58,876 nt of DNA from a virus (Duplodnaviria; Caudoviricetes), in the IMG/VR virus record IMGVR_UViG_3300016467_000949, positions 1 through 58,876 of that record. The stretch is one strand, 5' to 3'. The position numbers and the translations under genes were made by a program. This document shows positions 40,096-57,464 of this stretch, one piece after another. The notes beneath the pieces are model-generated. The model saw only the letters and a program-made list of their open reading frames with translations, was not told the DNA's origin and did no database searches. Numbering within the stretch: position 1 is the stretch's first letter; the number at the start of each line of letters is the position of its first letter.

Positions 40096-40281
40096 ATGAC
40101 CGATCTTGAAAGAATACGAACGATGCTGTGCGAGTTGGTTGAAGAAAAGGTCGTGGACACTTGGCTAGAAACGCCCAATGCAAAGTTCAACAACAAAAAG
40201 CCGATTGAACTCATAAAGGATGGTGACTTAAAGCCTCTAGAGGAAATGATCTATAGACTGAAGAGCGGGACTCCCGTTTGA
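40096..40281 (+). CDS. Xre/MbcA/ParS antitoxin C-terminal-like domain protein (may extend upstream to 39862)
   Basis: WLETPNAKFNNKKPIELI..G; GAGGA RBS before ATG 40096. Confidence 0.6.
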   Translation: MTDLERIRTMLCELVEEKVVDTWLETPNAKFNNKKPIELIKDGDLKPLEEMIYRLKSGTPV

Positions 40282-40604
40282 AATTTTCAATTCAAACCGA
40301 CTCACAAGCCATGCAAATAATAAACCACATCAAACTGCATGATATATTCATTTCCAAGTTGGATGAAATCTGCTCCGACAAGCCTTCCAACCGAGAATCA
40401 AGAATTCTGGCTTGGAAGAGTCTGTTGAATAAGCACGGGTGCATATTGGTTCTTGAGTCCCACATGGCCGAAGAGTTCAACAACAAGAGTCCGGAAGACT
40501 ACATCTGTATTGACTCCTACAGAACGAATATCGCAAGAGGATCGTGGGTTTTGGTGCCGAGAGATTTTGCCGAGAGGGTTCTTGTTTTGGGTTACATCCC
40601 GTAG
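40278..40604 (+). CDS. LGxLP family member 1
   Basis: ends VPRDFAERVLVLGYIP. Confidence 0.75.
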   Translation: MKFSIQTDSQAMQIINHIKLHDIFISKLDEICSDKPSNRESRILAWKSLLNKHGCILVLESHMAEEFNNKSPEDYICIDSYRTNIARGSWVLVPRDFAERVLVLGYIP

Positions 40605-40607
40605 AAT

Positions 40608-40925
40608 TTGGAGAACTATATTGTGATTGTTGAAATTTCAAGATTTGAGCACGAAGGGCAAGTTTTCATCCTCAGCAGGCCGGCCCCCTTCAGCCTCACA
40701 CAAGTTGATGACCTTTGGGTCTACGAGAACGAAGGTCTCAACCTTCTGGGCTATTCCCCAAATCGGGACGAAGCCCTGAAGAACTTGAACGAGGACTTCG
40801 CCAACTTCTACCACGAAATCGCACTTGAAAAGGACGAGAACCTCGAAGAAAAAGCCGCAGAAATGAAGCGGCAGTTTCTAGACTTGTTGGAATCTGTCTT
40901 CTTGCCCTTGGGGGCAAAAAAATGA
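40608..40925 (+). CDS. hypothetical protein, HicB-like fold possible
   Basis: LNLLGYSPNRDEALKNLNE. Confidence 0.55.
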   Translation: MENYIVIVEISRFEHEGQVFILSRPAPFSLTQVDDLWVYENEGLNLLGYSPNRDEALKNLNEDFANFYHEIALEKDENLEEKAAEMKRQFLDLLESVFLPLGAKK

Positions 40926-41236
40926 AAGACTGCCGACTATTGTGGCGTTTGTCATTCATCGTTAATTTGGCTTTGATTTCACTTGTTGTTTTGAACTTGG
41001 TTGACCCAAAGCCGCCCTTCAAACACACACTGCCAGAACCGCCCATACTTAAACTTTCAGACTATCCAAAAACTCAAGAACATTGTAAAATATGTCCCCA
41101 GTGCCGGGAGAGATGGGATTTGATTGAAAAGAATCAGATCACATGGGATAGCCCCGTCTGTTGTAGCGAAGGCTTTGAAATCGGAATGCAAGAATTTAGG
41201 GAAAGATGGGAAAAACTTGAAAAAGAAAGAAATTAA
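40922..41236 (+). CDS. membrane-anchored hypothetical protein
   Basis: TM segment plus Cys cluster. Confidence 0.6.
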   Translation: MKDCRLLWRLSFIVNLALISLVVLNLVDPKPPFKHTLPEPPILKLSDYPKTQEHCKICPQCRERWDLIEKNQITWDSPVCCSEGFEIGMQEFRERWEKLEKERN

Positions 41237-41250
41237 ATAGGAGAAATAAA

Positions 41251-41592
41251 ATGTTTAAAAGAGGATTTGTTCTAGAATTATTCGGATTTATTTTTTTCTT
41301 TTTTTTATCGGTGATGATACTATTAGCATTCGGGGTAAAATTTAATACCATTTTATCCAAAAAACACACAGGAAAAATTGAATATAAATTTCAAGATACT
41401 TTGGAGTTTTGTGATAAAGACACTAATGAAGTTGTTAAAAAATTAGATAATGTAGAATTTAGAGTGTTAGACAAAAATCGTTATATGTATGTGGCCAAGA
41501 CACCAGATTTGCCGTCACCACAAGTTCTAATAATGAATGATTTTCCACCAAACACTTATCTTATATTTTACCAAACACCCGATGGAGAATAA
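41251..41592 (+). CDS. membrane-anchored protein, paralog of 42593..42886
   Basis: YKFQDTLEFCD..EFRVL; AGGAG RBS; AT-rich DNA. Confidence 0.7.
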   Translation: MFKRGFVLELFGFIFFFFLSVMILLAFGVKFNTILSKKHTGKIEYKFQDTLEFCDKDTNEVVKKLDNVEFRVLDKNRYMYVAKTPDLPSPQVLIMNDFPPNTYLIFYQTPDGE

Positions 41593-41595
41593 ATA

Positions 41596-41967
41596 ATGTA
41601 TAAAACAATAGCGGATTTAAATAAGAAAAAAGGATGGAATATTAGGGTACTTCAATGGAAAGACTCTGATGAAGTAAATAGTATACTTAAAAATCAACAA
41701 CAAAATAATCCAGAATGGTATTATGTAGATTTTTATCGTACTGATGATTATACTCGGGGTATTCGCATAGAAGGCACAAAAGAGGATTTGCAAAAAATAG
41801 TAGATGTGTTAAATGTTGCTATTCAACCGCCAGAAGAAAATACACTTGAAACTCGCACAGTTTCCAAGCCAAGAGCAGTCCTGAAAGTAGAAGCGGTTCC
41901 TATTCCGCCGAAGATTCAATCCATGATGGCCGATGCGATAAGAGAGAGCGACAATGGAAAGCCGTGA
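41596..41967 (+). CDS. hypothetical protein
   Basis: GGAG RBS. Confidence 0.6.
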   Translation: MYKTIADLNKKKGWNIRVLQWKDSDEVNSILKNQQQNNPEWYYVDFYRTDDYTRGIRIEGTKEDLQKIVDVLNVAIQPPEENTLETRTVSKPRAVLKVEAVPIPPKIQSMMADAIRESDNGKP

Positions 41968-42166
41968 AAATAAAGAACACAAGGAAAGAGTGCTCAAGGC
42001 TTGCCAAAGCATGATCGGAATAGACCCCTCGGGTGCTCTTCATTATTTTTGGCTTGAAAAAGGAAGTTGCCTAAGCTCGGATGATTTGCGAATAATTGCA
42101 GACGAACTAGACAGACTTAACGAAGATTGGCATGTCAAGTGCGAAGAATATTTCAAAACCAAATGA
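41954..42166 (+). CDS. hypothetical protein
   Basis: DLRIIADELDRLN helix; coupled. Confidence 0.6.
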   Translation: MESRENKEHKERVLKACQSMIGIDPSGALHYFWLEKGSCLSSDDLRIIADELDRLNEDWHVKCEEYFKTK

Positions 42167-42324
42167 GCAAACCGCCAAATGTCAAGCCGTACTCATGGGT
42201 CTTGGCTTATGACGAGTCAAGATCCGAATACCGCTGGCATCACATTGAAAACCCAGAAGAAAAACATGTTGTTCTGGATGCATCTAAAATTTTCCTAGGA
42301 TGGAAGGAGCAAGTGCAAAAGTGA
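42163..42324 (+). CDS. small hypothetical protein
   Basis: ATGA/GTGA coupled on both sides. Confidence 0.5.
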   Translation: MSKPPNVKPYSWVLAYDESRSEYRWHHIENPEEKHVVLDASKIFLGWKEQVQK

Positions 42325-42596
42325 AGCGAGGATTCACACTGACGGAAGTCCTGGTTGTCATCTTCATCCTTGTGAGCTTGGGCGGGTTGCTTGTTCCCGC
42401 CCTCCAAGCCGCCAGGAACAATGCCAAAAACCTTCGTGAAAATAAAAATCCCGAAGAGGCGAACAAGAACGGTTGGTACATGAGCACGATGCGCCACGAC
42501 GGGCACCTGTGGGTGATGAACAGGAGGATGGACTACTTCTTGCACCACCCCGACTGCCCGTGCAGAGGTGCCTTGGCCGAAAGGGAAGAGAAGTGA
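42321..42596 (+). CDS. prepilin-type N-terminal cleavage/methylation protein (DUF1559-like N-terminus)
   Basis: KRG|FTLTEVLVVIFILVSLGGLLVPALQAAR. Confidence 0.8.
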   Translation: MKRGFTLTEVLVVIFILVSLGGLLVPALQAARNNAKNLRENKNPEEANKNGWYMSTMRHDGHLWVMNRRMDYFLHHPDCPCRGALAEREEK

Positions 42597-42886
42597 AGGT
42601 CGGATTCCTTTGCTTGTACTTGGGCTTCTTGATTGCAGTGCTCGTCGGCTTCTTGGTCAATCCCCCGTCCGAACCGTCGTACAAGTACCGAGACACCATA
42701 GAGTTCTGCGACAGGGAAACAGGGGAGTCTAGGAAGACGATCAGGAATGCAGAGTTCCGACTACTGAACAAAGACGATATAATGTATGGCGTCAAGATAA
42801 AGGTCAAAGAAAAAGAGCAGGAAGCCCTAGTGATGGATAAAATTCCGTCGGATTGCTTCGTGAGAATCAGGAAGGATTCGGAATGA
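42593..42886 (+). CDS. membrane-anchored protein, paralog of 41251..41592
   Basis: YKYRDTIEFCD..EFRLL. Confidence 0.7.
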   Translation: MKVGFLCLYLGFLIAVLVGFLVNPPSEPSYKYRDTIEFCDRETGESRKTIRNAEFRLLNKDDIMYGVKIKVKEKEQEALVMDKIPSDCFVRIRKDSE

Positions 42887-43242
42887 ACTGGAATTGCAAC
42901 TATTGCGGACACAGAACGGAACCCGTAAAGGAAGTCACACAGGACGGCGACGACTGGCCCGCCGGTCGGGCTTGCCGTCTGTGCGGCAAGGGAGAAATGG
43001 TCTGTCGCCCAATGGAAGTTCGCTTAATCAGCCCCATTGAACCATCTCCCGCCGTAACCTTCGTGGTTCAAAGGAGCTATGACGGCGAGGTCTGGGAGGA
43101 TTATTTCGTGGGCGATATGTACTCGTCAAAAGCTGAAGCCGTGAGCGTTGCGTCCGAACAGCACGAACGATATAATCTTACGAGAAAATTTCGTGTGATA
43201 CGTAGAGTAGAGAAAGTTGAGTGGGAGCCGAAATATGACTAA
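42883..43242 (+). CDS. Zn-ribbon-containing hypothetical protein
   Basis: CNYC...CRLC. Confidence 0.6.
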   Translation: MNWNCNYCGHRTEPVKEVTQDGDDWPAGRACRLCGKGEMVCRPMEVRLISPIEPSPAVTFVVQRSYDGEVWEDYFVGDMYSSKAEAVSVASEQHERYNLTRKFRVIRRVEKVEWEPKYD

Positions 43243-44702: not shown

Positions 44703-44724
44703 CAGAAAAATTGGAGAATAACTA

Positions 44725-45091: not shown

Positions 45092-45106
45092 AACGAAGGA
45101 GAAAGA

Positions 45107-45996: not shown

Positions 45997-46250
45997 CAAA
46001 AATCGGGATCGGAGACTTCGCGACCTGCCGGAAGGGCGAACTCGGCCTCATCCTCTGGGAGCGCCCCTGCAGGGACAAGAGAACCAACAGGCTGTATGTC
46101 CTTTACCATGGCATCAACTTGAGTCCCGATAAGTTCGGCCTCAACTGGCAAAGCAGGAATCCCACGAAGGTCAACAAGAGCCATGTCAAAAAAATGTTCA
46201 AGCCCGTCAATGTCCGGGCAGACCGAACTCCTAGAAGATCGTCTCTTTGA
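45993..46250 (+). CDS. hypothetical protein
   Basis: GTGA coupled. Confidence 0.55.
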   Translation: MTKIGIGDFATCRKGELGLILWERPCRDKRTNRLYVLYHGINLSPDKFGLNWQSRNPTKVNKSHVKKMFKPVNVRADRTPRRSSL

Positions 46251-46560
46251 GATGTTCATGGAGAGGTTCAAGAAATTCTCGCTGGAATTCAAATCAAGGA
46301 ATTCCCGCACTTTTCCGGCTTCCGAACACTTTGTTGACAACGACTCATCCACGACCCACATCTCCTTCGGCGAGCAGGAGATGTGGAACGCATGGTCTGC
46401 CCACGTGCGCAGACTCGGCTGCAAGATGGCCTATGTCCGCAATCCAGAAGATGGTAGGATGTATGTCCGCGACTACAGCGACCCGGTGGTCAATTCACGG
46501 TTCATAGAGATTCCCAAGGATGTGGCGGTCAGAATATTGGCTCTCGGTTATATTCCATGA
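46210..46560 (+). CDS. LGxLP family member 2
   Basis: ends IPKDVAVRILALGYIP; start uncertain. Confidence 0.75.
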   Translation: MSGQTELLEDRLFEMFMERFKKFSLEFKSRNSRTFPASEHFVDNDSSTTHISFGEQEMWNAWSAHVRRLGCKMAYVRNPEDGRMYVRDYSDPVVNSRFIEIPKDVAVRILALGYIP

Positions 46561-46766
46561 AAACAAAAATCCAATTCTTCCACCCCTTTGATCTCGTGGT
46601 CTATGACGGGCCGAGCAACCCCCCGAGGGATTACTCGGATGACACACATAGGTACGGATTCAGCCTTGACTTGACGACCGAGCTTTACTTCTATACTTAC
46701 GACTGGGGCTATGGCGTGAATTTCAGGCTCTTTGGCTTTGGCTTTGAATTAGCGAGGTTCGGATGA
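46557..46766 (+). CDS. hypothetical aromatic-rich protein
   Basis: coupled ORF. Confidence 0.55.
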   Translation: MKTKIQFFHPFDLVVYDGPSNPPRDYSDDTHRYGFSLDLTTELYFYTYDWGYGVNFRLFGFGFELARFG

Positions 46767-47386
46767 GGGTGTACATAGGCCCATACAAGAACTGGTGGGG
46801 TCCGTATCAGATCGCAGATATTCTGCGATATGTTGGGGTCTCCAAGAGGCGTTGCAAGAGGGTCGGCGAGTGGCTCAACAATACCCGCTTTCAGGAGTTC
46901 TGCGAGTGGATCCACGCCCGCAGGAAGCGTACCGTAAAGATTCGCATAGACGACTACGATGTGTGGGGCGTGGATCACACGCTTGCCATGATCGTGGTTC
47001 CCTTGCTCCATCGGCTCAAGGAGAAGACGCACGGCGCCCCCCATGTTGACGACGAGGATGTTCCAGAACATTTGAAAAGCACCAGCGCCCCGCCGCTGAC
47101 CGAAGAAGAGATCAATACTGGAAACCCTGACAACAACCATTTTCATCGTTGGGACTGGGTTCTTGACGAAATCATCTGGTGCTTCAGGCAGATTTTGGAC
47201 GAGGAATCCGAACTTCAGTTCTCCAAGGACAAAGACCCCGCCAAGCCCAGCAATGAAAAGGGACTTTCCTTCCGAGAATCAATGGAAAGAATTGATTTTG
47301 ATCACGACGCATACAAGGCACACCACGACAGGATTCAGAACGGGATGTGTTTGTTCGGCAAGTACCTCAGGGGCATGTGGGATTAA
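46763..47386 (+). CDS. conserved phage hypothetical protein
   Basis: IDDYDVW..DHTLA..P, WDWVLDE, LFGKY..WD. Confidence 0.75.
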   Translation: MRVYIGPYKNWWGPYQIADILRYVGVSKRRCKRVGEWLNNTRFQEFCEWIHARRKRTVKIRIDDYDVWGVDHTLAMIVVPLLHRLKEKTHGAPHVDDEDVPEHLKSTSAPPLTEEEINTGNPDNNHFHRWDWVLDEIIWCFRQILDEESELQFSKDKDPAKPSNEKGLSFRESMERIDFDHDAYKAHHDRIQNGMCLFGKYLRGMWD

Positions 47387-47387
47387 A

Positions 47388-47591
47388 ATGGAAGTGACTT
47401 TTTTGCTGACTGAAATAAAAGAAATTGATGCTGATTTGGCGAATTTTCTTTTTGAAAACGGCTTTGACGACTGCACCCCCTACAGTTCCGAAGGCAGGAG
47501 TTTCTTGTCTTTGGACGATGAGAAACCCCAGGTCAGACTGGAGCAACTTTTTAAACTTGGTATAAAGGCCGAGATAATGGGGCGGGACTGA
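47388..47591 (+). CDS. small hypothetical protein
   Basis: LFENGFDDCT..G..FLSLD. Confidence 0.55.
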   Translation: MEVTFLLTEIKEIDADLANFLFENGFDDCTPYSSEGRSFLSLDDEKPQVRLEQLFKLGIKAEIMGRD

Positions 47592-47968
47592 TGGATGCTA
47601 AAATCAAGGATTTACTCGAAGAAAAGTTCCATTCAATCCTCTGTCAGTCCGAGGCTTCCTTGAATTTGTTCGGGCCGGTTCCTCCGATTTGGCACATCGG
47701 CCGCCGCACGCCGTCGGTCATTTCTTCGTTCAGCGTGCCGAAGAAAGAGCGGAAGGAGATAATGTCCCAGTGGGGTTCGTACATTAGAAAACTTGGAATT
47801 ACCAGGGTGTCCGCCCCCAAGAACGCGACCGAAAACGCCTATGTCCTGGACCCTGCAACGAGTTGGTTCAATGCGGGAATACCATCCAGACTGTGGCACC
47901 GACCGTTATATGTCAAAATTCCCCGGCATTTGGCAATGAAGATTCTTGTTTTGGGAAGTCTGCCCTGA
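47591..47968 (+). CDS. LGxLP family member 3
   Basis: ends IPRHLAMKILVLGSLP. Confidence 0.75.
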   Translation: MDAKIKDLLEEKFHSILCQSEASLNLFGPVPPIWHIGRRTPSVISSFSVPKKERKEIMSQWGSYIRKLGITRVSAPKNATENAYVLDPATSWFNAGIPSRLWHRPLYVKIPRHLAMKILVLGSLP

Positions 47969-47999
47969 CCAGCTTTGCAGGTCTGAAAAACTGACTATA

Positions 48000-48344
48000 A
48001 TGGTTGCGAATAAACACGAGTGGACCGACGAAGAACTGATCGCCAAAATCCTTGAGAAAACGGACGAGAAGGAGTTTTTCAAAGATATTGTCAAATGGAT
48101 GTGTCATGTTCTGGCTCCCACAAAAAGGCGACAGATCATAGGGGATATCAGAGGTTGGAGCCGAACTTCCGCCGCCACACGCAGATTGTCTCATTCGGAT
48201 TTTTGCATGTTCATTTTCTCTTCAAGAATCAGGGCAAGTAAGCCTTTGGAAAACCGAATGTTGCTGGGCGAGTCTAATGAGTGGACCAAGAAGTATTTTG
48301 AAAATTTCCCGATAGGACAAGAGCAAGATGAACCGCAGGTCTAA
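48000..48344 (+). CDS. family B member 1
   Basis: FFKDIVKW..RASKPLENRMLLGESNEWTKKYFENFP. Confidence 0.7.
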   Translation: MVANKHEWTDEELIAKILEKTDEKEFFKDIVKWMCHVLAPTKRRQIIGDIRGWSRTSAATRRLSHSDFCMFIFSSRIRASKPLENRMLLGESNEWTKKYFENFPIGQEQDEPQV

Positions 48345-48831
48345 ACAAGTCGTCGGCATGGTCAACTTCCCCGTGGACGGGGAGGAGTACACCAGCACCA
48401 ACGAGGGAGGCATGTTCGTTCAGCTCTGGTGCGTGGAAGGGGAGAGATTCTCCTGCGGCGTCTGCTGCGGATACGGGGGCGTTTACTCCATGATGGGTGA
48501 GGAGCTCATCGGCACGGACGAAGAGGTCAACACCGACAACTTTCACGAGATTGAGGAGGGCAAAGACCCGATGGAATGGGAACAGAGTTTCGCCCTTGAG
48601 GAGAAACTTTTCCCCCGCATCAGGAAAGAGGGCGAACACCAGTACCTTTCTGAGGAACTCCTCGCCTGCGTGAACATGGGCAGTACCGGCTGGAGTGGAT
48701 CAAACGGCAACCACGATTACTGGCGTTGCCGGTACGAAGACCTTAATGATGCCGGTAAGGGCATCTACGATGCACTCAAGAATGCCTATCCCAAGGCCAA
48801 ATTTATTCTAGTGACATGGCTTGACACATGA
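48328..48831 (+). CDS. hypothetical acidic protein
   Basis: 167-aa ORF. Confidence 0.65.
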   Translation: MNRRSKQVVGMVNFPVDGEEYTSTNEGGMFVQLWCVEGERFSCGVCCGYGGVYSMMGEELIGTDEEVNTDNFHEIEEGKDPMEWEQSFALEEKLFPRIRKEGEHQYLSEELLACVNMGSTGWSGSNGNHDYWRCRYEDLNDAGKGIYDALKNAYPKAKFILVTWLDT

Positions 48832-49100
48832 CAAACCAAGACATGGAGTCCAGGCTTCTTCGCATTCTCTTGCATAAGTACAAGGATACGAGTGAAGTCC
48901 GGGGTCGGGGAGCTCGACAAACTCGCGTCCGCTTGCGGTCGTGGAAGGGCATCATCTCCTCCGTGGGATGCGAACTCATGCCCTCTCAGGGATTAAAAAG
49001 CGACGACAAAGACATCTTCGTCAATCACCTCGCTTGGGGGACGGTCCGTATTCCTAGGGACATCGCCATCAGAATTCTGGTTTTGGGGAGTCTGCCGTGA
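48828..49100 (+). CDS. LGxLP family member 4
   Basis: ends IPRDIAIRILVLGSLP. Confidence 0.75.
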   Translation: MTNQDMESRLLRILLHKYKDTSEVRGRGARQTRVRLRSWKGIISSVGCELMPSQGLKSDDKDIFVNHLAWGTVRIPRDIAIRILVLGSLP

Positions 49101-49396
49101 CCGAAGATCATGTTCTCAAGCTATTGCTTCTTGTCATAGACAAGGTGATGGAAGCGGACTACGACGACCAAAAACGAGCGTTCAAGGAAGTCGAGGGGTT
49201 GATAGGCTCAATACAGGATGATATTGGGAGTTGTTCCGGCCCTTACACCCATGAATTTCCAAATGATCGTAGTCCAGGACTCTGGAGAGCATACGGATGT
49301 GACAACCACGCCCACATAATCAATCTCAAGTTCGGCTGCTTCGCCGTCGGAAGGGAACTGGCGGAGAGGATTCTTGTGCTAGGAAGTTTGCCATGA
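49097..49396 (+). CDS. LGxLP family member 5
   Basis: ends VGRELAERILVLGSLP. Confidence 0.75.
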   Translation: MTEDHVLKLLLLVIDKVMEADYDDQKRAFKEVEGLIGSIQDDIGSCSGPYTHEFPNDRSPGLWRAYGCDNHAHIINLKFGCFAVGRELAERILVLGSLP

Positions 49397-49773
49397 CGGA
49401 CAACCTCCAGACAAGACTTGATAAGTCCTTGAGGTTTCAATACCGATTGCTTCCGCCTCCAAGCGAAAAAAGGGTGTATTGCTGGCGGCGTTACCTCTCA
49501 AAACTCAAAGGATTCAGGACGATCAGCCTTGATCTTTTTCTCACAAACTTGGAGTTGTTTTCAGAGCATGTCGTCGTGAAGGATCCTTCTTGCGACTTGA
49601 GCGACGGTCCCGCCCCGGGGAAGAGGCTTATCGTCGCCCATAGGGACTTCGCCCTCAAGTGCCTCGTGATGGGACTTCCCGACATATGTTCCATGCGGTT
49701 CAAAAAGCCCGGGCGGTGGGACATGCACGACCAGATGGGACTTGAATTCAAATTGCCGCAGAGGCTTCCATGA
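49393..49773 (+). CDS. LGxLP family member 6 (C-terminally extended)
   Basis: RDFALKCLVMGLP followed by ~30 further residues. Confidence 0.7.
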   Translation: MTDNLQTRLDKSLRFQYRLLPPPSEKRVYCWRRYLSKLKGFRTISLDLFLTNLELFSEHVVVKDPSCDLSDGPAPGKRLIVAHRDFALKCLVMGLPDICSMRFKKPGRWDMHDQMGLEFKLPQRLP

Positions 49774-50096
49774 CCGAAGAGGAAAAGAAACTCTATTCCA
49801 TTCTGCATTCCAGTTTTTGCAGGATGGCGGAAGCTGCCCGCGGTGGCGGGGGAATGGCATCCGTATCTTTTCTGGGGAAAGTCTTTGATGGAACCGCATG
49901 GATCAGACTGCAGTTGTCTTGGGAGCATCGCATCTGTCATAATCTGGATGCGGTCTTCACCTCCGCGCGAAGAAATCCAACGGAAAATTTCTATGTGAGC
50001 GACCCCTCCCGGCAAATCATTTTTTTGGGAACCGTGTATATTGAGATCAATAAGGAAATCGGCCTGAAAATTCTCACCCTAGGAAACATTGCATGA
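49770..50096 (+). CDS. LGxLP family member 7
   Basis: ends INKEIGLKILTLGNIA. Confidence 0.72.
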   Translation: MTEEEKKLYSILHSSFCRMAEAARGGGGMASVSFLGKVFDGTAWIRLQLSWEHRICHNLDAVFTSARRNPTENFYVSDPSRQIIFLGTVYIEINKEIGLKILTLGNIA

Positions 50097-50596
50097 CCAT
50101 CGCCACGAAACTGAAGAACATCAACGCCGAAATAGGACGCAAGGAAGAAGAAATGCGTCGTCTCGGCGAGGAGGTTAACGAACTCAGAAACAAAAGGCTT
50201 AAACTCGAGGAAGATGTGGACGAACTGCATTTTGTCTCTCCCGAACCCGGCGACTTCTGGCACGAGATGTTCACTCCTTTCTTCATCGTCTTGGCGGTGG
50301 AGGACGACGGATCCGTGACGATATGTGAGAAGACCAAGACGGTCTACGAGGATCCCGACCAAAATATGGTGCTGAAGAGCTACGAGAATCCCGAAGACCC
50401 GGAGGTCAAGGAGTACTTCTCCCGTCCCCGCAAGGACATCGGATATACATTTGACATAAGCGAAACAAGGGTTGTTTCGCGTCCAGAATTCGAAAAGATG
50501 CTCAAGTGCTACTCTTTCATGCCAGAAAAACTGACATATAAGTGCATTCCCGGACGGTGCAAGGAAATTGTCAAGATATGGAAAGAACAAAAATGA
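50093..50596 (+). CDS. hypothetical protein with N-terminal coiled coil
   Basis: PEPGDFWHEM block. Confidence 0.7.
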   Translation: MTIATKLKNINAEIGRKEEEMRRLGEEVNELRNKRLKLEEDVDELHFVSPEPGDFWHEMFTPFFIVLAVEDDGSVTICEKTKTVYEDPDQNMVLKSYENPEDPEVKEYFSRPRKDIGYTFDISETRVVSRPEFEKMLKCYSFMPEKLTYKCIPGRCKEIVKIWKEQK

Positions 50597-50853
50597 CGGA
50601 TGAAGAGGAGTTAAAGTTGTATGTTGCCCTAGAGAGGCGGTGGAAAGCCATGACCGACTCGCCAGAAAAAGAGAAGGAATATTCATGGATAGAGTATGTG
50701 GTTGAAATGGGCATGTCCTTTTCCCCCGAACGCCAGAAAGACGGCAACATACACATACAGAATCCGGCGTGTTTGGGCGGTGGCGGACTTTTGTATGTCT
50801 CCATGCCGCCAGAGGTCGCCGAGAAAATACTCGTTCTCGGAGGAACACCATGA
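50593..50853 (+). CDS. LGxLP family member 8
   Basis: ends MPPEVAEKILVLGGTP. Confidence 0.75.
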   Translation: MTDEEELKLYVALERRWKAMTDSPEKEKEYSWIEYVVEMGMSFSPERQKDGNIHIQNPACLGGGGLLYVSMPPEVAEKILVLGGTP

Positions 50854-51272
50854 AATATGACTACTATGACGAGACGAACTGGGTGAAGAAGAATGTGAAC
50901 TTTGGCAAATGGACCTACCACGCCAAGGATTCAGACAAGGCAACTCCCGTTCCTTCTCCGCCGACTGACGAACAAATGATAGAAGTGATCCTTGAACATC
51001 AGTACTTGGAGGAAAAGGATTTTTTTCTTGACATGGTAGAATGGCTCCGGAATGATGCGCCGAAAAAGTTGCGCACGATGCTTCGAGAGCTCTGGCCGGT
51101 AAATACGATCACGCAACGCGCCATCGCCAATCTTGACTACGAACGGCTCTGCGAGGTGATCTACAAGATTGGCTTCCGGGCGAGCGAAATTCTTGAGCGA
51201 CGGATGATGCTCGGACAGAACAACGAGTGGGTCAAGAAGTACTTCAAGGATTTCCCGCCGAGGCAAAAATGA
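50850..51272 (+). CDS. family B member 2
   Basis: FFLDMVEWL..IGFRASEILERRMMLGQNNEWVKKYFKDFP. Confidence 0.75.
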   Translation: MKYDYYDETNWVKKNVNFGKWTYHAKDSDKATPVPSPPTDEQMIEVILEHQYLEEKDFFLDMVEWLRNDAPKKLRTMLRELWPVNTITQRAIANLDYERLCEVIYKIGFRASEILERRMMLGQNNEWVKKYFKDFPPRQK

Positions 51273-51577
51273 ATTGGGACATTCCTGACGCCGACATGCA
51301 TGTCTGGAGGATTACTGGCAGTGACTCCAAGACATATCCCGTCTCCGGCATGGAATACAAACTTTTGAATCTGTTTGAGAAACGATATGATTCCTTCGGC
51401 GATACTGAAAAATGGCACATACACTTGAAATCTCTCGGCATTAGATTGACCGAGAACAAAAGAAAAGTAGGCCTGTCCGTTCCTGATCCCCACACCAAAC
51501 AGTGCTGGATTCCTCTTTGGATATCGGTTCCCGAAGAACTCGCTCAAAAAATTCTTGTATTGGGGGGCTTGCCATGA
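51269..51577 (+). CDS. LGxLP family member 9
   Basis: ends VPEELAQKILVLGGLP. Confidence 0.75.
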   Translation: MNWDIPDADMHVWRITGSDSKTYPVSGMEYKLLNLFEKRYDSFGDTEKWHIHLKSLGIRLTENKRKVGLSVPDPHTKQCWIPLWISVPEELAQKILVLGGLP

Positions 51578-52020
51578 GGGCCAGAATCGTTGAAAGAACC
51601 CGTCAGAACGGCACCAAGAATTACTGGATACAGAAGAGGTTCCTGTTTTGGTGGTTTGATTTTGACGAATATAACTCACTGGCAGAGGCTCAAAAGAAAA
51701 TGTGCTTCTATGACGGCACGAGAGTCGTAGACCGTGTTGTCGGAGAAGACTCACAACGAAAACCAGACCCCGAAGTCTCCGTACTGACACACAAACTGAA
51801 GACCGCATTTGAGGATAGACTCAAGGCGGAGGACAACCCGGAAGATTTCCTGAATGGCCTGAATCCCTATGTTTTCCATGAATTTAAGCACTATATTCCG
51901 GATATCGTCAACGAGGCTCAGGGGAAACTATATGTCATAGACAGCCCCATCCACGGCGGCAAAGCCATAGTGTTGGATGGAGACTTCGCCCAAAAAGTTC
52001 TGACGCTAGGGCTGCCATGA
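51574..52020 (+). CDS. LGxLP family member 10 (with extra N-terminal module)
   Basis: WIQKRFLFWW module; ends DFAQKVLTLGLP. Confidence 0.72.
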   Translation: MRARIVERTRQNGTKNYWIQKRFLFWWFDFDEYNSLAEAQKKMCFYDGTRVVDRVVGEDSQRKPDPEVSVLTHKLKTAFEDRLKAEDNPEDFLNGLNPYVFHEFKHYIPDIVNEAQGKLYVIDSPIHGGKAIVLDGDFAQKVLTLGLP

Positions 52021-52334
52021 ATGACATCAGGGAAGAATTCCAAAAAATACTGGACAAAAAGTTCTGGTCTTTCTGGCACAGGAGCCTTTCCGAAGACCAA
52101 AATGACTGGCTTCAAGAAAATTGGCATGGGTGGCTTGAGGAAAACAACATCAAGAAGATGAGGAGCGAGGGCGAATACTCGGAAGTGCGAATAAAGCACG
52201 GATTGAAGGTCACCGAACATCATATGTGTTGCTTCAACCGATCCGCCTCAACACTTTCCGACGAAAGGCACCCTCTTCTCTTGGTTCCGTATGACCTCGC
52301 CTTCAGGTCTGTCGTCCTCGGAGGTCTGCCATGA
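52017..52334 (+). CDS. LGxLP family member 11
   Basis: ends VPYDLAFRSVVLGGLP. Confidence 0.75.
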   Translation: MNDIREEFQKILDKKFWSFWHRSLSEDQNDWLQENWHGWLEENNIKKMRSEGEYSEVRIKHGLKVTEHHMCCFNRSASTLSDERHPLLLVPYDLAFRSVVLGGLP

Positions 52335-52636
52335 CGCTCGCCGACAAACTTTACGAAATATTAGACCACAGTTATTACAATTTTTGTAGAACAGAGGGCG
52401 CTCCCAAAGGATACTATTTTGGAAAACTCGGAAATGAAAATCGCACGAGTGTAGAGTTAATTCTAAAGTGGCATCAAATGCTCACTTCAAATGGAATGAT
52501 GACCTCCGAAGAATTCATGTGCCAAAGGGGTTTGGTCTGTGTCAAGGATCCGGCCATTATACACAATGAATGGATCATCATTTCCGAAGACCTCGCCCTT
52601 AAGATTGCCACTCTCGGATGCTTGCCATGTATCTAG
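52331..52636 (+). CDS. LGxLP family member 12
   Basis: ends ISEDLALKIATLGCLPCI. Confidence 0.75.
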   Translation: MTLADKLYEILDHSYYNFCRTEGAPKGYYFGKLGNENRTSVELILKWHQMLTSNGMMTSEEFMCQRGLVCVKDPAIIHNEWIIISEDLALKIATLGCLPCI

Positions 52637-52902
52637 ACAATCACAAGCTCTATGACATCCTTGAGAAAAAGTACAACTCCCTTTTGATGGATGATTTTAT
52701 CCGCACCTTCAAGAGGTCAAGCATTGAGGGCATCTCATGCCCGACCAATTACAAGTGGGAGGAGTTCTTGGAATCAATGGACATCAAAACATTTCCTAGG
52801 GCAAATTCTGTTTCAATCAAAAATCCCGCCCCTCATTCCGGTTCATTGTCTATTCCCAACGAAGTTGCGGAGAAAATTTTGGTTCTCGGGGACCTTCCTT
52901 GA
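52627..52902 (+). CDS. LGxLP family member 13
   Basis: ends IPNEVAEKILVLGDLP. Confidence 0.75.
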   Translation: MYLDNHKLYDILEKKYNSLLMDDFIRTFKRSSIEGISCPTNYKWEEFLESMDIKTFPRANSVSIKNPAPHSGSLSIPNEVAEKILVLGDLP

Positions 52903-53213
52903 ATCCCAACATCCAAGACAAGTTGCTCGTCATTTTCGCAGACAGACTTTTGCGCATCTGGGGAGAGAAGTCCTGTTCGTTCCGCGCGGTTTTTTCTCCC
53001 GAAGATCGTGCAGATATCGCTCGGGAGTGGAGCGACTATATTGAGGGTCTTGGTGGCGAAATACAGGTCTGGGGCAAGGCCGTCCAAGATCAGCATGGTT
53101 GCCTTTTGATCCGCAATCCGTGCGAGGAATCAGAAAGAGACCAAACAATGACATATATCAGGCTTACGGAGAATCTGGCCTTGAAAATCCTCGCCTTGGG
53201 GGAACTGCCTTGA
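52899..53213 (+). CDS. LGxLP family member 14
   Basis: ends LTENLALKILALGELP. Confidence 0.75.
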   Translation: MNPNIQDKLLVIFADRLLRIWGEKSCSFRAVFSPEDRADIAREWSDYIEGLGGEIQVWGKAVQDQHGCLLIRNPCEESERDQTMTYIRLTENLALKILALGELP

Positions 53214-53494
53214 GTCCGAAATTAATTTGTGGGCTGGCATCCAAGATTGAATCAAAATTTTGGTCTCTAAATCGGGCCAATCAGGTTGAAGAATGGAACC
53301 TATGGCTTGATACCAATGGGATCAGGAGGCTGAAATGGAATGAGTGTGGCTTTGACTATTTCAATCCTAGAAAATCAACGATAATCCACATGCACAATCC
53401 CGCCTCTAGGGTTTCCATCTCGGAGCGTCCGTTGCTTATTTTGACCAAAGAATTCGCCGAAAAAGTCTTCTTTCTGGGATTTCTGCCATATTGA
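53210..53494 (+). CDS. LGxLP family member 15
   Basis: ends LTKEFAEKVFFLGFLPY. Confidence 0.72.
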   Translation: MSPKLICGLASKIESKFWSLNRANQVEEWNLWLDTNGIRRLKWNECGFDYFNPRKSTIIHMHNPASRVSISERPLLILTKEFAEKVFFLGFLPY

Positions 53495-53518
53495 GATTTC
53501 ACCAGAATACATTATAAT
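53491..53518 (+). promoter_or_regulatory. sigma70-like promoter
   Basis: TTGAGA-16 nt-TATAAT before GGAGG RBS. Confidence 0.5.
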
Positions 53519-53536
53519 TCGGATGGAGGGCATCTG

Positions 53537-53995
53537 ATGGATTCAAATAACAAGCACTGTACATGGACTCACAATCCAAATCCCGTCTATACATGGGAAG
53601 TTAAAAATAACTGGCAAAACACAACTGTTTGGCCACCCAACACAGTTACCACCACTACCATTCCTGGCGTGACCGTGGCATCCACATCCTTTCAGTTTCC
53701 TCCCCCGGCGACCAACGAGTCCATGATAGATGACATTATGAATCGCACGGAGGATAAGGGATTCTTCCGTGATATGGTGGAGTGGCTTGAAAAAGAGGCT
53801 CCGAAGAGGCTTCCGTTGATGCTGAGGGAGTTCTGTTCGCCTATGCACACCGGGCCAGTCTTTTACGACCGCCTCTGCGAGGTTCTCTATCAGATCGGTT
53901 TCAGGACGAGCGAGATGCTTGAGCGAAGAATGATACTGGGGCCGGCCAACAAGTGGGTCGCGGATTACTTCAAGGATTTTCCGTCAAGGCAATGA
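53537..53995 (+). CDS. family B member 3
   Basis: FFRDMVEWL..IGFRTSEMLERRMILGPANKWVADYFKDFP; Thr/Pro-rich N-terminus. Confidence 0.75.
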   Translation: MDSNNKHCTWTHNPNPVYTWEVKNNWQNTTVWPPNTVTTTTIPGVTVASTSFQFPPPATNESMIDDIMNRTEDKGFFRDMVEWLEKEAPKRLPLMLREFCSPMHTGPVFYDRLCEVLYQIGFRTSEMLERRMILGPANKWVADYFKDFPSRQ

Positions 53996-53999
53996 AGAA

Positions 54000-54368
54000 A
54001 TGACCGACTGGCACGAGGCGACCGAGCGGCTCCGAGCCATATTTGCGGACAAGGTACGGAGGATAAGACTTGAAATACCCGCCGACGAGATCGCCGAGGA
54101 GGCGGGAAAAGCCTTTCTTGCTGGAACCCCCGGCGACGACGGATCCTGGCTGATGGAAGGGTCGGGGCTGGAGGCTCTGATACGCCGGATTAACAGCGGC
54201 CACAAAGATGGCATCGTCCGAATCGCCAACGAAATAGGAACGGTTGTCAAAGAAGAGCATGTCAATGTTGAGGACAAAGAAAACATATTCATGGGTACGA
54301 ACGGTCTCTTGATAAGAATATCAAAGGAAACCGCTCTCAAGATACTGACATTAGGAGAGATTCCTTGA
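54000..54368 (+). CDS. LGxLP family member 16
   Basis: ends ISKETALKILTLGEIP. Confidence 0.75.
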   Translation: MTDWHEATERLRAIFADKVRRIRLEIPADEIAEEAGKAFLAGTPGDDGSWLMEGSGLEALIRRINSGHKDGIVRIANEIGTVVKEEHVNVEDKENIFMGTNGLLIRISKETALKILTLGEIP

Positions 54369-54556
54369 AGAAAATCAATGACAGTTGTTATGAGTGTGAA
54401 TTTGGGGTGTTCTATAAGATTTTCGCCCGTCGCAACGACTCGTGGGAATTCAAATCCAAGACGCTTCTCAAGGAAAAGGACTTGGAGTTCGTTCTAAATG
54501 CAATCAGGGAATTGAAATCAGTCGCCACTCTTGATTGTTCTGCCTCCAAAACCTAA
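54365..54556 (+). CDS. small hypothetical protein
   Basis: TTGA coupled with AGGAG RBS. Confidence 0.5.
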   Translation: MKKINDSCYECEFGVFYKIFARRNDSWEFKSKTLLKEKDLEFVLNAIRELKSVATLDCSASKT

Positions 54557-54559
54557 AAT

Positions 54560-55213
54560 GTGTCCATGAAGGACTTCTTTCACAGGGCGGTCAAGATCAC
54601 GGACAAGGAGGACAACATCTTCTTCTGGTCTGACATGCACCTCGGGCAGGAATGCAGGAGTTGGGATGAGCCGCTCTATGTCAAGCGTGGCTTCAAATCG
54701 CTCGAGGAACACGATTCGGCTCTCGTAAAGAGATGGAACGAAAGAATCTCCCACGAGGGGGTCGTGTTCAACCTCGGCGACATGCTGTTCGGTTACGACG
54801 GCGAACGCAGGCTGATCAACTACTTTGAGATGCTCAACTTCAGGACGATGTACCTCCTCTTCGGAAACCACACCGCAGGGACGAAGCAGGTCTTCGAGAA
54901 ACTAGAAGGCAATGTCTACGAGGTGAATTCGGAGAAGAGGGTCGTGTTCTGCCCGAACTACATGGAAGCGCACATCAACGGTTACATGTGCGTGCTTAGT
55001 CACTATGCCATCGCGTCGTTCAACGGGCAGGGCAAGGGAGCCTATATGATCCATGGTCATTCCCACGGTAATCTTTACGGCTCTGACATGGGGGGTGTCC
55101 TCTACAAGGCCAGGGTCGTGGACGTGGGGGTTGAAAGATTTCCAATCCCTCCGTCGTTCGGCGACATCAGAAAACTCTTCAGGGAGGAGCCGGTCAGCTT
55201 TGACCACCATTGA
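54560..55213 (+). CDS. calcineurin-like metallophosphoesterase
   Basis: SDMHLG, NLGD, GNH, H, HGHSH, DVGV. Confidence 0.85.
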   Translation: MSMKDFFHRAVKITDKEDNIFFWSDMHLGQECRSWDEPLYVKRGFKSLEEHDSALVKRWNERISHEGVVFNLGDMLFGYDGERRLINYFEMLNFRTMYLLFGNHTAGTKQVFEKLEGNVYEVNSEKRVVFCPNYMEAHINGYMCVLSHYAIASFNGQGKGAYMIHGHSHGNLYGSDMGGVLYKARVVDVGVERFPIPPSFGDIRKLFREEPVSFDHH

Positions 55214-55214
55214 A

Positions 55215-55580
55215 ATGGATGACAAGGAAAAAAGACTGAAGGCCCTCGAGGAACTTTCCCGTCTAGACGAGGAATTGGGGCTGGACAAAGGGTGGCCCGA
55301 GAACCGCGAGATAGAAGGACTCAGGCTCGTCTGCACGAGTCCGGCCTGCCCAGAGCAGTACGAAGTCCTGGATGCAGAAGGAAAGCAAGTGGGCTACCTC
55401 CGCCTCCGCCACGGAAGATTCCGAGCCGATTACCCCGACTGCGGTGGCGAGACTGTCTATGTGTCCAACACAAAGGGTGACGGCGTGTTCAGCGAGGAAG
55501 AGAGGGTTCCTGAGCTCACAAACGCCGTAAGGAAACTTCTTGAAAGGCGAGACAAGTGCACTGGCCCCGCAACAGACTGA
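55215..55580 (+). CDS. hypothetical protein
   Basis: LVCTSPACPEQY..GYLRLRHG. Confidence 0.7.
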   Translation: MDDKEKRLKALEELSRLDEELGLDKGWPENREIEGLRLVCTSPACPEQYEVLDAEGKQVGYLRLRHGRFRADYPDCGGETVYVSNTKGDGVFSEEERVPELTNAVRKLLERRDKCTGPATD

Positions 55581-55921
55581 AGAAGGTTCCGCTTCCCTTC
55601 GGCAGGATGCGCCTTGGCGGCGTGGAAGACAAGCTTGACTCCATAGTTTTCGCCGCGTTCGTACGATTGTTCGGACCCAATGACAATTGGCCGATCAACA
55701 CCCGCCAGAGGAAGGAGTGGGGGCGGTTCCTCTCTGATAGGGGCATAGTCTGGGAAGTCCGTCTCAGGAACAAGCCCAATTGGGAGGGGTGGGAACTTGT
55801 GGAAGGGAAGGGCGGCGTAGTTGTGCGTCCCCAAGGGCTTGAAGAACACATAAAAATAAACCACTATTTCGTACCCAAAGACCTCGCCATGAGGATGCTC
55901 GCCCTGGGGGAACTTCTCTGA
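55556..55921 (+). CDS. LGxLP family member 17
   Basis: ends VPKDLAMRMLALGELL; start uncertain. Confidence 0.72.
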   Translation: MHWPRNRLKKVPLPFGRMRLGGVEDKLDSIVFAAFVRLFGPNDNWPINTRQRKEWGRFLSDRGIVWEVRLRNKPNWEGWELVEGKGGVVVRPQGLEEHIKINHYFVPKDLAMRMLALGELL

Positions 55922-56271
55922 TGGAAAAGGAACGCGTAGAAAAACTTTCCCGAATCTTCAAGGCCGAGTACGAAAAGATCAATCTTGGCTTCTACGAAGC
56001 AGAGGCCTGGAAGAAGTATCTGCACGGATACAGCGAGATACATTTCTTGAGCGGAATTTCTGACATGGTTGAGTTCATCAACTGTGGCGAAATCATTGAA
56101 AAAAATCCCGTCGCCGTCCGAAACCCAGCCTCGCTCATGGAGATTCTTGTTCTCCCGAGGGAATTTGCCGACAAGGTTCTTGCCCTCGGATTGCCCCGCG
56201 ACGTTTCATCCACGGTAGAGGAATTCAAGAGCAGGCCTGTTCCTAGGCTTGGCAGAAAGTCCAAAAAATGA
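55921..56271 (+). CDS. LGxLP family member 18 (C-terminally extended)
   Basis: LPREFADKVLALGLP followed by basic tail. Confidence 0.72.
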   Translation: MEKERVEKLSRIFKAEYEKINLGFYEAEAWKKYLHGYSEIHFLSGISDMVEFINCGEIIEKNPVAVRNPASLMEILVLPREFADKVLALGLPRDVSSTVEEFKSRPVPRLGRKSKK

Positions 56272-56603
56272 TCTGGAACAAAAGTTCCTTGGAAAAACTG
56301 AATGAACTGGTCAAGGCAAAGTTCGGTGACATCAGGGGTGTGATCCAACTCCTGCCGGGCGACATCGAAGAGCAGTCCATGATCATAGAGAAGGCTTGGC
56401 ACGAATACTGCATGAGAGTCGGAGTAAAAATGAATATCATTCCGGCTTACAAAACGGAGACCCGAGAAGACCTTCCCGCTCCCGGGGAGGCCATGTTCCT
56501 TTCGGACGGCACGGTGAGGATCAGGAACATCTGGGGGGACAAGTATATCGACATGTCCGAGGATTTTGCAGTCAAGGCTTTAGTGCTTGGTTTTCTTCCT
56601 TGA
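56268..56603 (+). CDS. LGxLP family member 19
   Basis: ends MSEDFAVKALVLGFLP. Confidence 0.75.
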   Translation: MIWNKSSLEKLNELVKAKFGDIRGVIQLLPGDIEEQSMIIEKAWHEYCMRVGVKMNIIPAYKTETREDLPAPGEAMFLSDGTVRIRNIWGDKYIDMSEDFAVKALVLGFLP

Positions 56604-56620
56604 CTAGCTACTTTAGGCCG

Positions 56621-57361: not shown

Positions 57362-57430
57362 CATCCACAATCTTTAGATGATTGTGGAAATACTTTTCCT
57401 AGGCTTCTGCTTGGTTTTTGCTTTCGCTCA

Positions 57431-57438: not shown

Positions 57439-57464
57439 ATGGCACTAATTACAATGAGGATCAA

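Follow-up and report, generated by a model that had tools for sequence, protein, structure and literature searches.

A tandem multigene family of small, strongly diverged proteins in uncultivated phages

The viral DNA stretch analysed here, IMG/VR record IMGVR_UViG_3300016467_000949 (Caudoviricetes; 58,876 bases, hereafter called the window), carries between positions 40278 and 56603 of its plus strand 19 genes for small proteins that end at or close to a common motif. These genes belong to a multigene family: many paralogues are arranged in tandem in one phage, 19 in the window and 26 or 32-33 in related phages, and the repertoire differs from one related phage to the next. The sequence comparisons show that the paralogues are old, that the orthologues that have been retained are under purifying selection, and that the sets of members are mosaic between close relatives. 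We tentatively propose that the copies may bind different targets in the infected cell stoichiometrically, and that gain, loss and exchange of copies may adapt the phage to its hosts or to their defences. The record is linear with an estimated completeness of 12% and thus represents a fragment of a much larger phage genome. Since the estimates for the relatives conflict (6-18% for the records G001, G004 and G005 as compared to 44% for G006), we speak of a large phage without giving a size.

The analysis of the window establishes, as far as sequences can do so, that the 19 open reading frames (ORFs) do code for proteins, and that these form one family carried by phages. All of them begin with a start codon of an open frame on the plus strand (14 ATG, 2 GTG, 3 TTG), the encoded proteins have 86-148 amino acids (aa), and the C-terminal motif [AG]x[KR]-h-h-h-[LM]-G is present in each. 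A six-frame scan of the complete window with this pattern returned the 19 members and four other matches, none of which adjoins a stop codon. The motif is the exact end of the chain in 15 members; one or two residues follow in two members (52331 and 53210, named like all others by their first position), and 24-30 residues in another two (49393 and 55921). A profile that included the 19 proteins themselves found exactly these and no others in the record. To avoid circularity, a second profile was built from 108 outside sequences, none of which is at least 50% identical to a window member: This outside-only profile recognised all 19 proteins at E <= 5.4e-5 and 17 of them at E <= 6e-8, the weakest being 49097 and 51574. 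The proposal of the initial annotation, a reading of the letters alone, that 19 paralogous ORFs share this C-terminus is thus borne out, and so is the uninterrupted row of seven members at 51269-53494; further rows comprise four (48828-50096) and three members (55556-56603). The additional sequence blocks that had been attributed to most members do exist but are less general: a strict N-terminal [KR]LxxI[LF]xx[KR][FY]-type pattern was found in 7 of the 19 members, the pattern of a Trp-containing helix in 11 (with the aligned Trp column occupied in 17), and a [VILM]x[DN]P turn in 11.

The repeat is one of protein rather than of DNA. Over the 12 codons of the tail, the mean pairwise identity is 0.59, 0.75 and 0.34 at the first, second and third codon position, respectively, i. 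e. the third position is near random whereas the first two are conserved, and this indicates that the conservation is protein-coded. The conserved Leu of the tail is encoded by six different codons. In a repeat search of 38000-58876, the tails appeared only as repeats of 39 bases that are 62-77% identical, and the one other repeat was a pair of 139 bases in two genes of a second family (see below).

No curated family accounts for these proteins. When the 19 members were compared with Pfam-A, PHROGs v4, NCBIfam 20 and PADLOC-DB 2 at E <= 1, no library family was common to more than one of them, and the best single matches had E values of 0.1 (Pfam), 0.016 (PHROGs), 0.0076 (NCBIfam) and 0.00026 (PADLOC, a homing endonuclease in one member); the earlier impression that no known family is involved holds for all four libraries. 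The profile search recommended by the initial annotation for an estimate of copy number, performed with 1.84 billion proteins, yielded 521 representative clusters (50% identity) at E <= 0.001 from public metagenomes, 20 of them at E <= 1e-10, and none has a name where the database provides a name field. Among the best 150 of the 521 representatives, 140 have 80-130 aa; the chain stops precisely at [LMIV]G(x)[LIVMFT]P in 116, continues for 1-3 residues in 8 and for longer in 15, and 11 have a variant motif. In a second database, all 35 relatives are unnamed or "hypothetical protein", and none has a Pfam domain. The 50,697 GenBank phage records contain no family match better than E 0.4. A scan of 185,579 bacterial and archaeal species, each represented by one genome, with a strict back-translated tail pattern that itself fits only about 3 of the 19 window members gave no match; this result argues well against arrays in cellular genomes and weakly against single copies. 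In the full-text literature covered (PMC12028318, PMC13573597, PMC12484599), neither the family nor comparable arrays of large phages are described, a statement that refers to the articles and not to their supplementary gene-family tables. Taken together, the family appears to be new, and its fold is possibly new.

Some outside proteins deviate from the single-domain architecture. Two family domains in tandem in one chain are encoded by G001 (30849-31838) and are found in the representatives P0002 and P0031. A search for fused forms among longer proteins, which is weak evidence, found none; a single representative of 586 aa joins the family domain to a PcfJ-like domain and is possibly a gene-calling artefact. 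The representative P0098 (95 aa) combines an N-terminus like that of the window gene 46763-47386 with a family tail (...KILALGYMP); either neighbouring genes form a chimera here, or the gene was called across a deletion.

The predicted domain and its C-terminal helix

According to the structure models, each member forms a small soluble domain of about 90-125 aa, to which the conserved tail belongs. Two members were modelled with AlphaFold2 from one alignment of 135 sequences, and the two models are therefore not independent. Member 52627 was predicted with a local distance difference test value (pLDDT) of 83.3 and a predicted template modelling score (pTM) of 0.71; the model contains helices at residues 5-30, 39-50 and 78-87 and strands at 61-65 and 73-77, and the last four residues (Gly-Asp-Leu-Pro) are modelled as coil. 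For the most divergent member, 49097 (pLDDT 77, pTM 0.67), the prediction comprises two helices, four strands and a final helix. Both models begin with two helices and end with one, with a beta-sheet in between, giving the predicted order helix, helix, beta-hairpin (or small sheet), helix. The common scaffold with variable parts that had been proposed is thus supported by one profile for all members and by two models with the same layout, with the proviso of their shared alignment.

A fold match was defined by a Foldseek E value <= 0.001 or a template modelling (TM) score >= 0.5, with PDB and BFVD as libraries and without the cellular models of the AlphaFold DB. The best PDB and BFVD rows for 52627 had E values of 1.3 (TM <= 0.32) and 0.62 (TM <= 0.41), respectively, and the best PDB row for 49097 an E value of 0.51 (TM <= 0.39), none of them a match. 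The family profile reached a best E value of 0.019 with the PDB sequences, and the look-alikes of two members in the ESM Atlas (best feature scores 0.86 and 0.75, best TM 0.39) were not usable. Thus, the check with AlphaFold and Foldseek suggested in the initial annotation found the same layout in two members but no matching known fold (TM <0.42). Winged-helix regulators (PadR, MarR, forkhead) appeared only in chance-level Foldseek rows (probability <= 0.08) and were not matched in Pfam; they were rejected since the modelled order helix-helix-strand-strand-helix is not that of a winged helix. A homodimer prediction for 52627 with the alignment scored 0.20 as compared to a mark of 0.42, a value that weighs in neither direction as regards oligomers.

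The conserved columns of the 135 sequences are distributed over the complete domain: 7, 8, 11, 12, 15, 16 and 19 in helix 1, 44, 47, 48, 51 and 52 in helix 2, 62, 64, 66 and 67 in strand 1 and the following turn, 73, 74, 76 and 77 in strand 2, and 79, 80, 81, 83-88, 90 and 91 in the last helix and tail, where only 82 and 89 are free. They correspond to one stripe of helix 1, to the Trp, Tyr and Leu of helix 2, to alternate strand residues and to nearly the whole last helix, in which Ala81 and Gly88, seven residues apart, are both present in 134 of the 135 sequences, Pro91 in 128, and position 83 is Lys in 122 and Arg in 13; Lys7 and Lys15 are conserved as well. The variable parts are the linker between helices 1 and 2, which differs in length (columns 20-38 are filled in less than 40% of the sequences, except for 28-32 with 0.77-0.87), and the loops 55-61 and 68-72. 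A conserved set of His, Cys, Ser or acidic residues that would suggest catalysis was not found in the alignment.

The spacing of the conserved columns fits buried helix faces and one face per strand; therefore, we read the "tail" as a complete, tightly packed helix of the core. Its start (Pro77-x-Glu79) and its end (Gly88-x-Leu90-Pro91) would be ordinary helix caps. The conserved residues would then represent the hydrophobic core and the helix caps, and the linker and the loops around the hairpin would carry the differences between the copies. The initial annotation had considered that the tail might be a sorting or degradation tag or a separate docking peptide. With a predicted helix that is contiguous with the last strand, a spacing typical of buried faces and a chain that extends beyond the motif in 4 of the 19 members, the tail is more likely part of the fold core than a tag. 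The chain also runs past the motif in about 13 of the 32 G001 members and in 23 of the 139 strict-motif proteins among the best 150 representatives listed.

Relatives, turnover and selection

Relatives were sought with degenerate DNA patterns of the tail in viral and metagenome contigs, with the RecA-like protein of the window and with profile searches of whole records. The viral records G001, G004 and G005 contain 32, 33 and 32 copies with identical scores, suggesting that they are one phage sampled three times. Two of the seven viral pattern matches, G002 and G003, had no family member and were discarded as chance matches. Eight of 13 metagenome loci with the tail pattern carry one to seven tandem copies, and the other five none in the part examined. 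The RecA-like protein led to five further records: G006 with 26 copies, and G007-G010 with no copy in fragments rated 5-28% complete, which are little informative.

The phage represented by G001 is a moderately distant relative, with core proteins 70-94% identical to those of the window. None of its family members can be aligned with a window member at the DNA level, and the best protein matches reach 23-48% identity. Even so, 10 of the 19 window members are nearer to a G001 member than to any paralogue in the window, with 10 reciprocal best hits; the paralogues therefore predate the split between the two phages. Recent duplicates are absent: over 55 residues, the best pair within the window has 38% identity. 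The array of G001, together with its phosphoesterase gene, is flanked by homologues of two window genes that are direct neighbours there (12079/12081), and thus occupies a different site.

G006 is close and syntenic, with core proteins 74-93% identical to those of the window. Orthologues (71-88% identity) are present only for the four 3'-most members, 54000, 55556, 55921 and 56268, whereas the other 15 reach 21-39%. At the same time, 11 of the 26 G006 members are 50-84% identical to G001 members. As G006 shares some members with the window and others with G001, the arrays are mosaic, with blocks of members having been exchanged or replaced.

The four orthologous pairs of window and G006 have ratios of nonsynonymous to synonymous substitution (dN/dS, Nei-Gojobori method) of 0.11, 0.14, 0.10 and 0.25 in the above order; with dS values of 0.5-1.6, which are near saturation, these ratios are rough. 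Eight well-conserved genes (MPE, orf55053, orf13245, orf14225, ThyX, ClpP, orf34696 and MTase) gave 0.03-0.11, and other accessory genes with readable dS 0.10-0.20. The comparison of these sequences thus shows purifying selection on the retained orthologues, somewhat weaker than on core enzymes.

Variation at closer range was seen in sequencing runs. Parts of the array are present in 12 DNA runs from 11 studies, one of them possibly the source sample. In run X2, which comes from another study and is labelled as a wastewater metagenome, a contig of 83,646 bases is colinear with the window over 46094-57000 and has the same set of members; it differs by 1.8-5.2% over three long pieces (46901-56606) and by 7-16% in short pieces at 46094-46832 and 56675-57000. 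Runs X3, X4 and X5 contributed shorter pieces. Patches less than 80% alike occur in member 46210 (46441-46649, run X2) and in member 53210 (53274-53382, runs X2 and X5), and in X2 and X3 the body of member 51269 (51268-51528) is swapped for 249 unlike letters while the tail stays alike. Such patches were also found outside the family (46832-46901, 47100-47219, 56606-56675). Pairs of one-base indels in family genes (46363/46366, 46397/46400, 52841/52848) restore the frame within 3-7 bases. The pairs are among the 12 of 38 indels listed; of about 1,200 differences, 40 were listed.

The array and its surroundings in the window

The members are listed below with strand, length and C-terminus; E refers to the outside-only profile.

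40278..40604, +, 108 aa, TTG start, ...RVLVLGYIP; E 6.3e-21; best match in G001 40%, in G006 39%
46210..46560, +, 116 aa, ...RILALGYIP; E 2.5e-18
47591..47968, +, 125 aa, isoelectric point (pI) 10.1, ...KILVLGSLP; E 6.7e-19
48828..49100, +, 90 aa, pI 10.5, ...RILVLGSLP; E 2.3e-15
49097..49396, +, 99 aa, GTG start overlapping the preceding stop, without Trp and without DP, weakest; E 5.4e-5
49393..49773, +, 126 aa, ...KCLVMGLP plus 30 residues; E 1.4e-11; G001 counterpart 36%, with a similar extension
49770..50096, +, 108 aa, ...KILTLGNIA; E 5.2e-14
50593..50853, +, 86 aa, pI 4.7, ...KILVLGGTP; E 1.3e-18
51269..51577, +, 102 aa, ...KILVLGGLP; E 2.2e-16
51574..52020, +, 148 aa, long N-terminal extension, ...KVLTLGLP, weak; E 2e-5
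52017..52334, +, 105 aa, ...RSVVLGGLP; E 3.7e-15
52331..52636, +, 101 aa, ...KIATLGCLPCI; E 4.5e-22
52627..52902, +, 91 aa, ...KILVLGDLP, modelled; E 2.5e-19
52899..53213, +, 104 aa, TTG start overlapping the preceding stop, ...KILALGELP; E 4.4e-20
53210..53494, +, 94 aa, TTG start, ...KVFFLGFLPY; E 1.4e-12
54000..54368, +, 122 aa, ...KILTLGEIP; E 2.2e-10; G006 orthologue 84%, dN/dS 0.11
55556..55921, +, 121 aa, GTG start, ...RMLALGELL; E 5.8e-8; G006 orthologue 88%, dN/dS 0.14; G001 counterpart 34%
55921..56271, +, 116 aa, ...KVLALGLP plus 24 residues; E 1e-13; G006 orthologue 83%, dN/dS 0.10
56268..56603, +, 111 aa, last of the array, ...KALVLGFLP; E 1.5e-15; G006 orthologue 71%, dN/dS 0.25

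Member 40278 is an outlier 5.6 kilobases (kb) upstream of the main array. The pI values range from 4.7 to 10.5, being above 8.5 in 6 members and at most 6.3 in 10. The arrangement of the genes resembles an operon: at 17 of the 27 gene junctions between 46.2 and 56.6 kb, stop and start codon overlap by 4 bases, and the next ATG, GTG or TTG takes its first base from the third base of the final Pro codon. Accordingly built ends, Pro-TGA or in one case Ala/Leu-TGA, are found in 17 of the 19 family genes, the last codon base together with TG being the next start codon. In Escherichia coli, a C-terminal Pro in front of the stop codon slows termination, an effect that might favour re-initiation in the array.

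Several other genes are interspersed with the members: two that accompany the array in all three phages compared (listed below), a phrog_21607 gene, three copies of a second family, family B, and several ORFs without any match.

54560..55213, +, phosphoesterase, non-member; phrog_547 E 1.1e-31, weak Metallophos_2 match
46763..47386, +, phrog_11543 gene, non-member

The phosphoesterase gene lies in or beside the array in each phage, with a 76% identical counterpart directly in front of the first member in G001 and a 93% identical one within the array in G006. The relatives of the phrog_11543 gene are placed between the first and the second member in G001 (56%) and just before the array in G006 (59%). 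The paralogues of family B (47946-48344, 50850-51272, 53537-53995) share the sequences ...FF.D[IM]V.W... and ...RM.LG..N.W...YF..FP, and two of them have a stretch of 139 bases in common that is 77% identical. They match no family in Pfam or PHROGs, where only a sub-threshold EncFtn-like match (E 0.0096) was obtained. In two of the three cases, a member of the array family follows directly 3' of the family B gene. An obligate partnership was considered and rejected: The family B profile matches only the three window copies among the loci searched, G001 included, which has none, and G006 has a single relative (32-60% identity), so that family B is not a constant companion.

No pair of template and variable repeats of a diversity-generating retroelement was found in 38000-58876, and the 20 larger window ORFs scanned in Pfam, which come from a fragmentary record, include no reverse transcriptase. 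Long ORFs are also present on the opposite strand, for example at 49991-50851. Downstream of the array, tail-fibre-like genes follow from 57378 onwards. In three genes (15258-15527, 20430-21242 and 57378-57803), the N-terminal 70 aa or so are nearly identical (MGIKIS.LP.G.AEQ...NVDNTSDA.KP; 78% identity between 57378 and 20430) and are followed by C-terminal parts that differ; the segment looks like an attachment domain shared by fibre or receptor-binding proteins that can be exchanged for one another. The next ORF, which extends from 57805 to the window's end, carries a putative motif of formylglycine-generating-enzyme-like domains. A further pair of small paralogues, the third, is encoded at 41251-41592 and 42473-42886 (39% identity over 61 aa, E 1e-14), both with a hydrophobic N-terminal segment. 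A pilin-like phage-encoded ORF of 98 aa at 42300-42596 matches PF07963, the prepilin-type N-terminal methylation motif (E 2.4e-5), which is too general to point to a host. At 6683-8701 on the minus strand lies a Cys-rich ORF of 672 aa without a Pfam family.

Elsewhere, the window codes for a gp32-like protein, a RecA/UvsX-like recombinase, a DEAD-box helicase, ClpP, a C5 cytosine methyltransferase, a protein of 1,463 aa with six Laminin_G_3 domains, and PrkA followed by DUF444 and SpoVR. The RecA-like protein is at most 33% identical to any protein of the 50,697 GenBank phage records, and judged by its sequences the phage has no cultivated relative. The 58,876 bases contain no tRNA genes, and no cellular relative emerged when the 185,579 species genomes were scanned with an alignment of DUF444. 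The prkA gene (26579-29995) is split by an intein with a LAGLIDADG homing-endonuclease domain; its open frame has 1,147 aa as compared to 719 aa in G001, from which the intein is apparently absent. The PrkA/DUF444/SpoVR block (26579-32796) is present in the window and in G001 and missing at the syntenic site of G006 (48053-49195), where the flanking genes abut; in this comparison it behaves as an accessory module. The initial annotation had speculated about a link between the family and a PrkA/ClpP module. For PrkA, this idea is not supported, as G006 has 26 copies of the family, no PrkA match in its 73,428 bases (a fragment) and no block at the syntenic site. ClpP is encoded in all three phages, which by itself says nothing about a link.

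Possible roles of the family and comparison with known systems

How may a phage benefit from dozens of versions of one small domain? In the interpretation that we favour, and put forward as tentative, each copy would be a stable scaffold that shows a different surface, and the copies would bind different proteins of the host or of competitors stoichiometrically in the infected cell, e. g. targets of the take-over or defence proteins. The phage would tune its repertoire by gaining, losing and exchanging entire members, and not by rapid point mutation. The lack of a conserved catalytic residue set fits binding rather than enzymatic activity. It is tempting to go further and to regard the family as the phage counterpart of the multigene families of eukaryotic viruses: a new fold would serve as the scaffold, 20-30 or more ancient versions per genome would be exchanged in blocks between phages, and every version would neutralise or divert a host protein of its own. 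Put most boldly, the constant C-terminal helix would in addition be a common handle by which all copies are loaded either into the capsid, for injection together with the DNA, or onto a single phage machine. We regard this extended scenario as rather unlikely.

Several points weigh against the binder interpretation. Binding, targets, expression and timing, and likewise the host- or defence-binding effectors suggested in the initial annotation, would all be deduced from the evolutionary pattern and the context. Neither promoter-like sites (22 as compared to 16.9 +/- 4.3 in shuffled controls) nor terminator-like sites (16 as compared to 20.8 +/- 4.8) are enriched, and no RNA run is among the 14 runs listed. 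Purifying selection on retained orthologues is not the classical signature of an arms race, and with dS near saturation the ratios are approximate. Both structure models depend on the same alignment, and the burial of the tail was deduced from the spacing of residues and not from model coordinates. Finally, the absence of the family from cellular genomes rests on the one strict motif scan that fits about 3 of the 19 members.

Among the alternatives, an adaptor function fares best, even though we consider it improbable. Here, the last helix, perhaps together with helix 1, would dock onto one shared partner such as a protease, a chaperone, a polymerase or a phage structure, and the variable part would recruit clients, as in the poxvirus ankyrin proteins with their C-terminal F-box-like motif. 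The conservation of the last helix is indeed extreme for a family of about 20-30% identity, as the nearly invariant Ala81 and Gly88 (134/135) illustrate, 116 of the 150 best representatives end exactly at the motif, and ClpP is encoded in the window and in both relatives. However, the conserved positions cover about three of four helix faces, with the small residues at a distance of seven that fits close packing, the modelled helix follows the last strand without a linker, and the conserved hydrophobic stripes elsewhere would supply packing partners. Moreover, ClpP by itself does not choose its substrates, and no unfoldase was seen in the window.

Three further possibilities have a small probability each. 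(i) The members might be cargo that is packaged in the capsid and enters the cell together with the DNA, with the C-terminal h-L-x-L-G-x-L-P as a capsid-targeting peptide. Precedents are the internal proteins of phage T4 and the cargo peptides of encapsulins, which dock inside an HK97-fold shell. The terminal position of the motif in most members, the many small and diverse members that differ between relatives, and the tail-fibre-like genes behind the array are compatible with such a role, which is nevertheless hardly to be expected: no flexible linker precedes the motif, which is predicted to be part of the fold, conservation extends over the whole domain and not only the tail, and the chain runs beyond the motif in 4 of the 19 window members and in about 13 of 32 in G001. 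(ii) Small nucleic-acid-binding regulators, e. g. a series of transcription or translation factors that serve different classes of genes, would agree with the size and the helix-rich layout, with the conserved Lys7, Lys15 and Lys83, with a pI above 8.5 in 6 of the 19 members and with the PadR, forkhead and MarR rows at the top of the Foldseek output (probability <= 0.08). Yet all structural matches are at chance level (E >0.5, TM <0.42), 10 of the 19 members have a pI of at most 6.3, no member has a helix-turn-helix or ribbon-helix-helix match in Pfam, and we know of no precedent for 19-33 regulators of one family in one phage; such a role has a similarly small probability. (iii) An immunity or antitoxin-like array that neutralises toxins of competitor bacteria, other phages or abortive infection of the host is reminiscent of the tandem "polyimmunity" loci of polymorphic toxin systems, and the tandem, small and diverged paralogues with sets that differ between relatives, as well as a HicB antitoxin match at chance level (E 1.2), point in this direction. 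On the other hand, no toxin gene is recognisable beside the array, no Pfam immunity family was matched, and no PADLOC family is found in more than one member. We would give this idea little credit, and it is a special case of binding to varied targets rather than a true alternative. The notion that the ORFs are non-functional, i. e. decaying duplicates or chance frames tied to a repeated DNA element, might appeal to long ORFs on the opposite strand such as 49991-50851, but is refuted as far as sequence analysis goes, and has a negligible probability, in view of tail codons with near-random third and conserved first and second positions, dN/dS ratios of 0.10-0.25, compensated indels and hundreds of outside homologues with the same length and ends.

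The family occupies about 6-10 kb per carrying genome and accounts for several hundred unnamed metagenome protein clusters, in large uncultivated phages that consist mostly of genes without known function, and its domain is a candidate new fold. If the members are binding modules, they would offer a ready natural collection of small, stable scaffolds that differ in their surfaces, and provide a handle on how very large phages meet diverse hosts or defences.

Similar solutions may be seen in several known systems. The anti-defence clusters of phages (anti-CRISPR and others) also consist of small accessory proteins without known domains, whose mode of action is binding and which differ from one related phage to another; however, these are unrelated proteins, as opposed to dozens of paralogues of one fold, and PADLOC, which covers the defence side, has no family in more than one member. 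The immunity arrays of polymorphic toxins share the rows of small, diverged paralogues without an enzymatic motif, each with a presumed binding partner of its own. In contrast to the array described here, they are cellular and have toxin genes as neighbours. No toxin gene is recognisable next to the window array, the strict motif was not found in the 185,579 species genomes, and no Pfam immunity family is matched. The internal proteins of T4 and the hyperplastic regions of T4-like phages offer small, highly polymorphic phage proteins that have a short, conserved terminal stretch in common and lie where close relatives differ from one another, and the window has a T4-like replication set as well (gp32-like protein, RecA/UvsX-like protein, helicase). 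The signal of the T4 proteins is N-terminal, about 10 residues long and cleaved, whereas here a whole domain with a C-terminal helix motif is conserved, and the nearest RecA of a GenBank phage is at most 33% identical.

A further likeness is that to large eukaryotic DNA viruses, for which tandem multigene families are a known feature: MGF110/360/505 of African swine fever virus and the ankyrin/PRANC and BTB-Kelch families of poxviruses, for which functions in host range and immune evasion are known by experiment. In both cases, tandem arrays of many diverged paralogues occupy an accessory region of a large double-stranded DNA virus, and the sets vary between strains; the poxvirus ankyrin proteins also combine a constant C-terminal motif with a variable body. 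The differences are the bacterial hosts, the unrelated fold and sequence, a function that is deduced rather than demonstrated, and the purifying selection on retained members. If the copies are indeed binding modules, the family would be an example from bacterial viruses of the multigene-family strategy of poxviruses and African swine fever virus.

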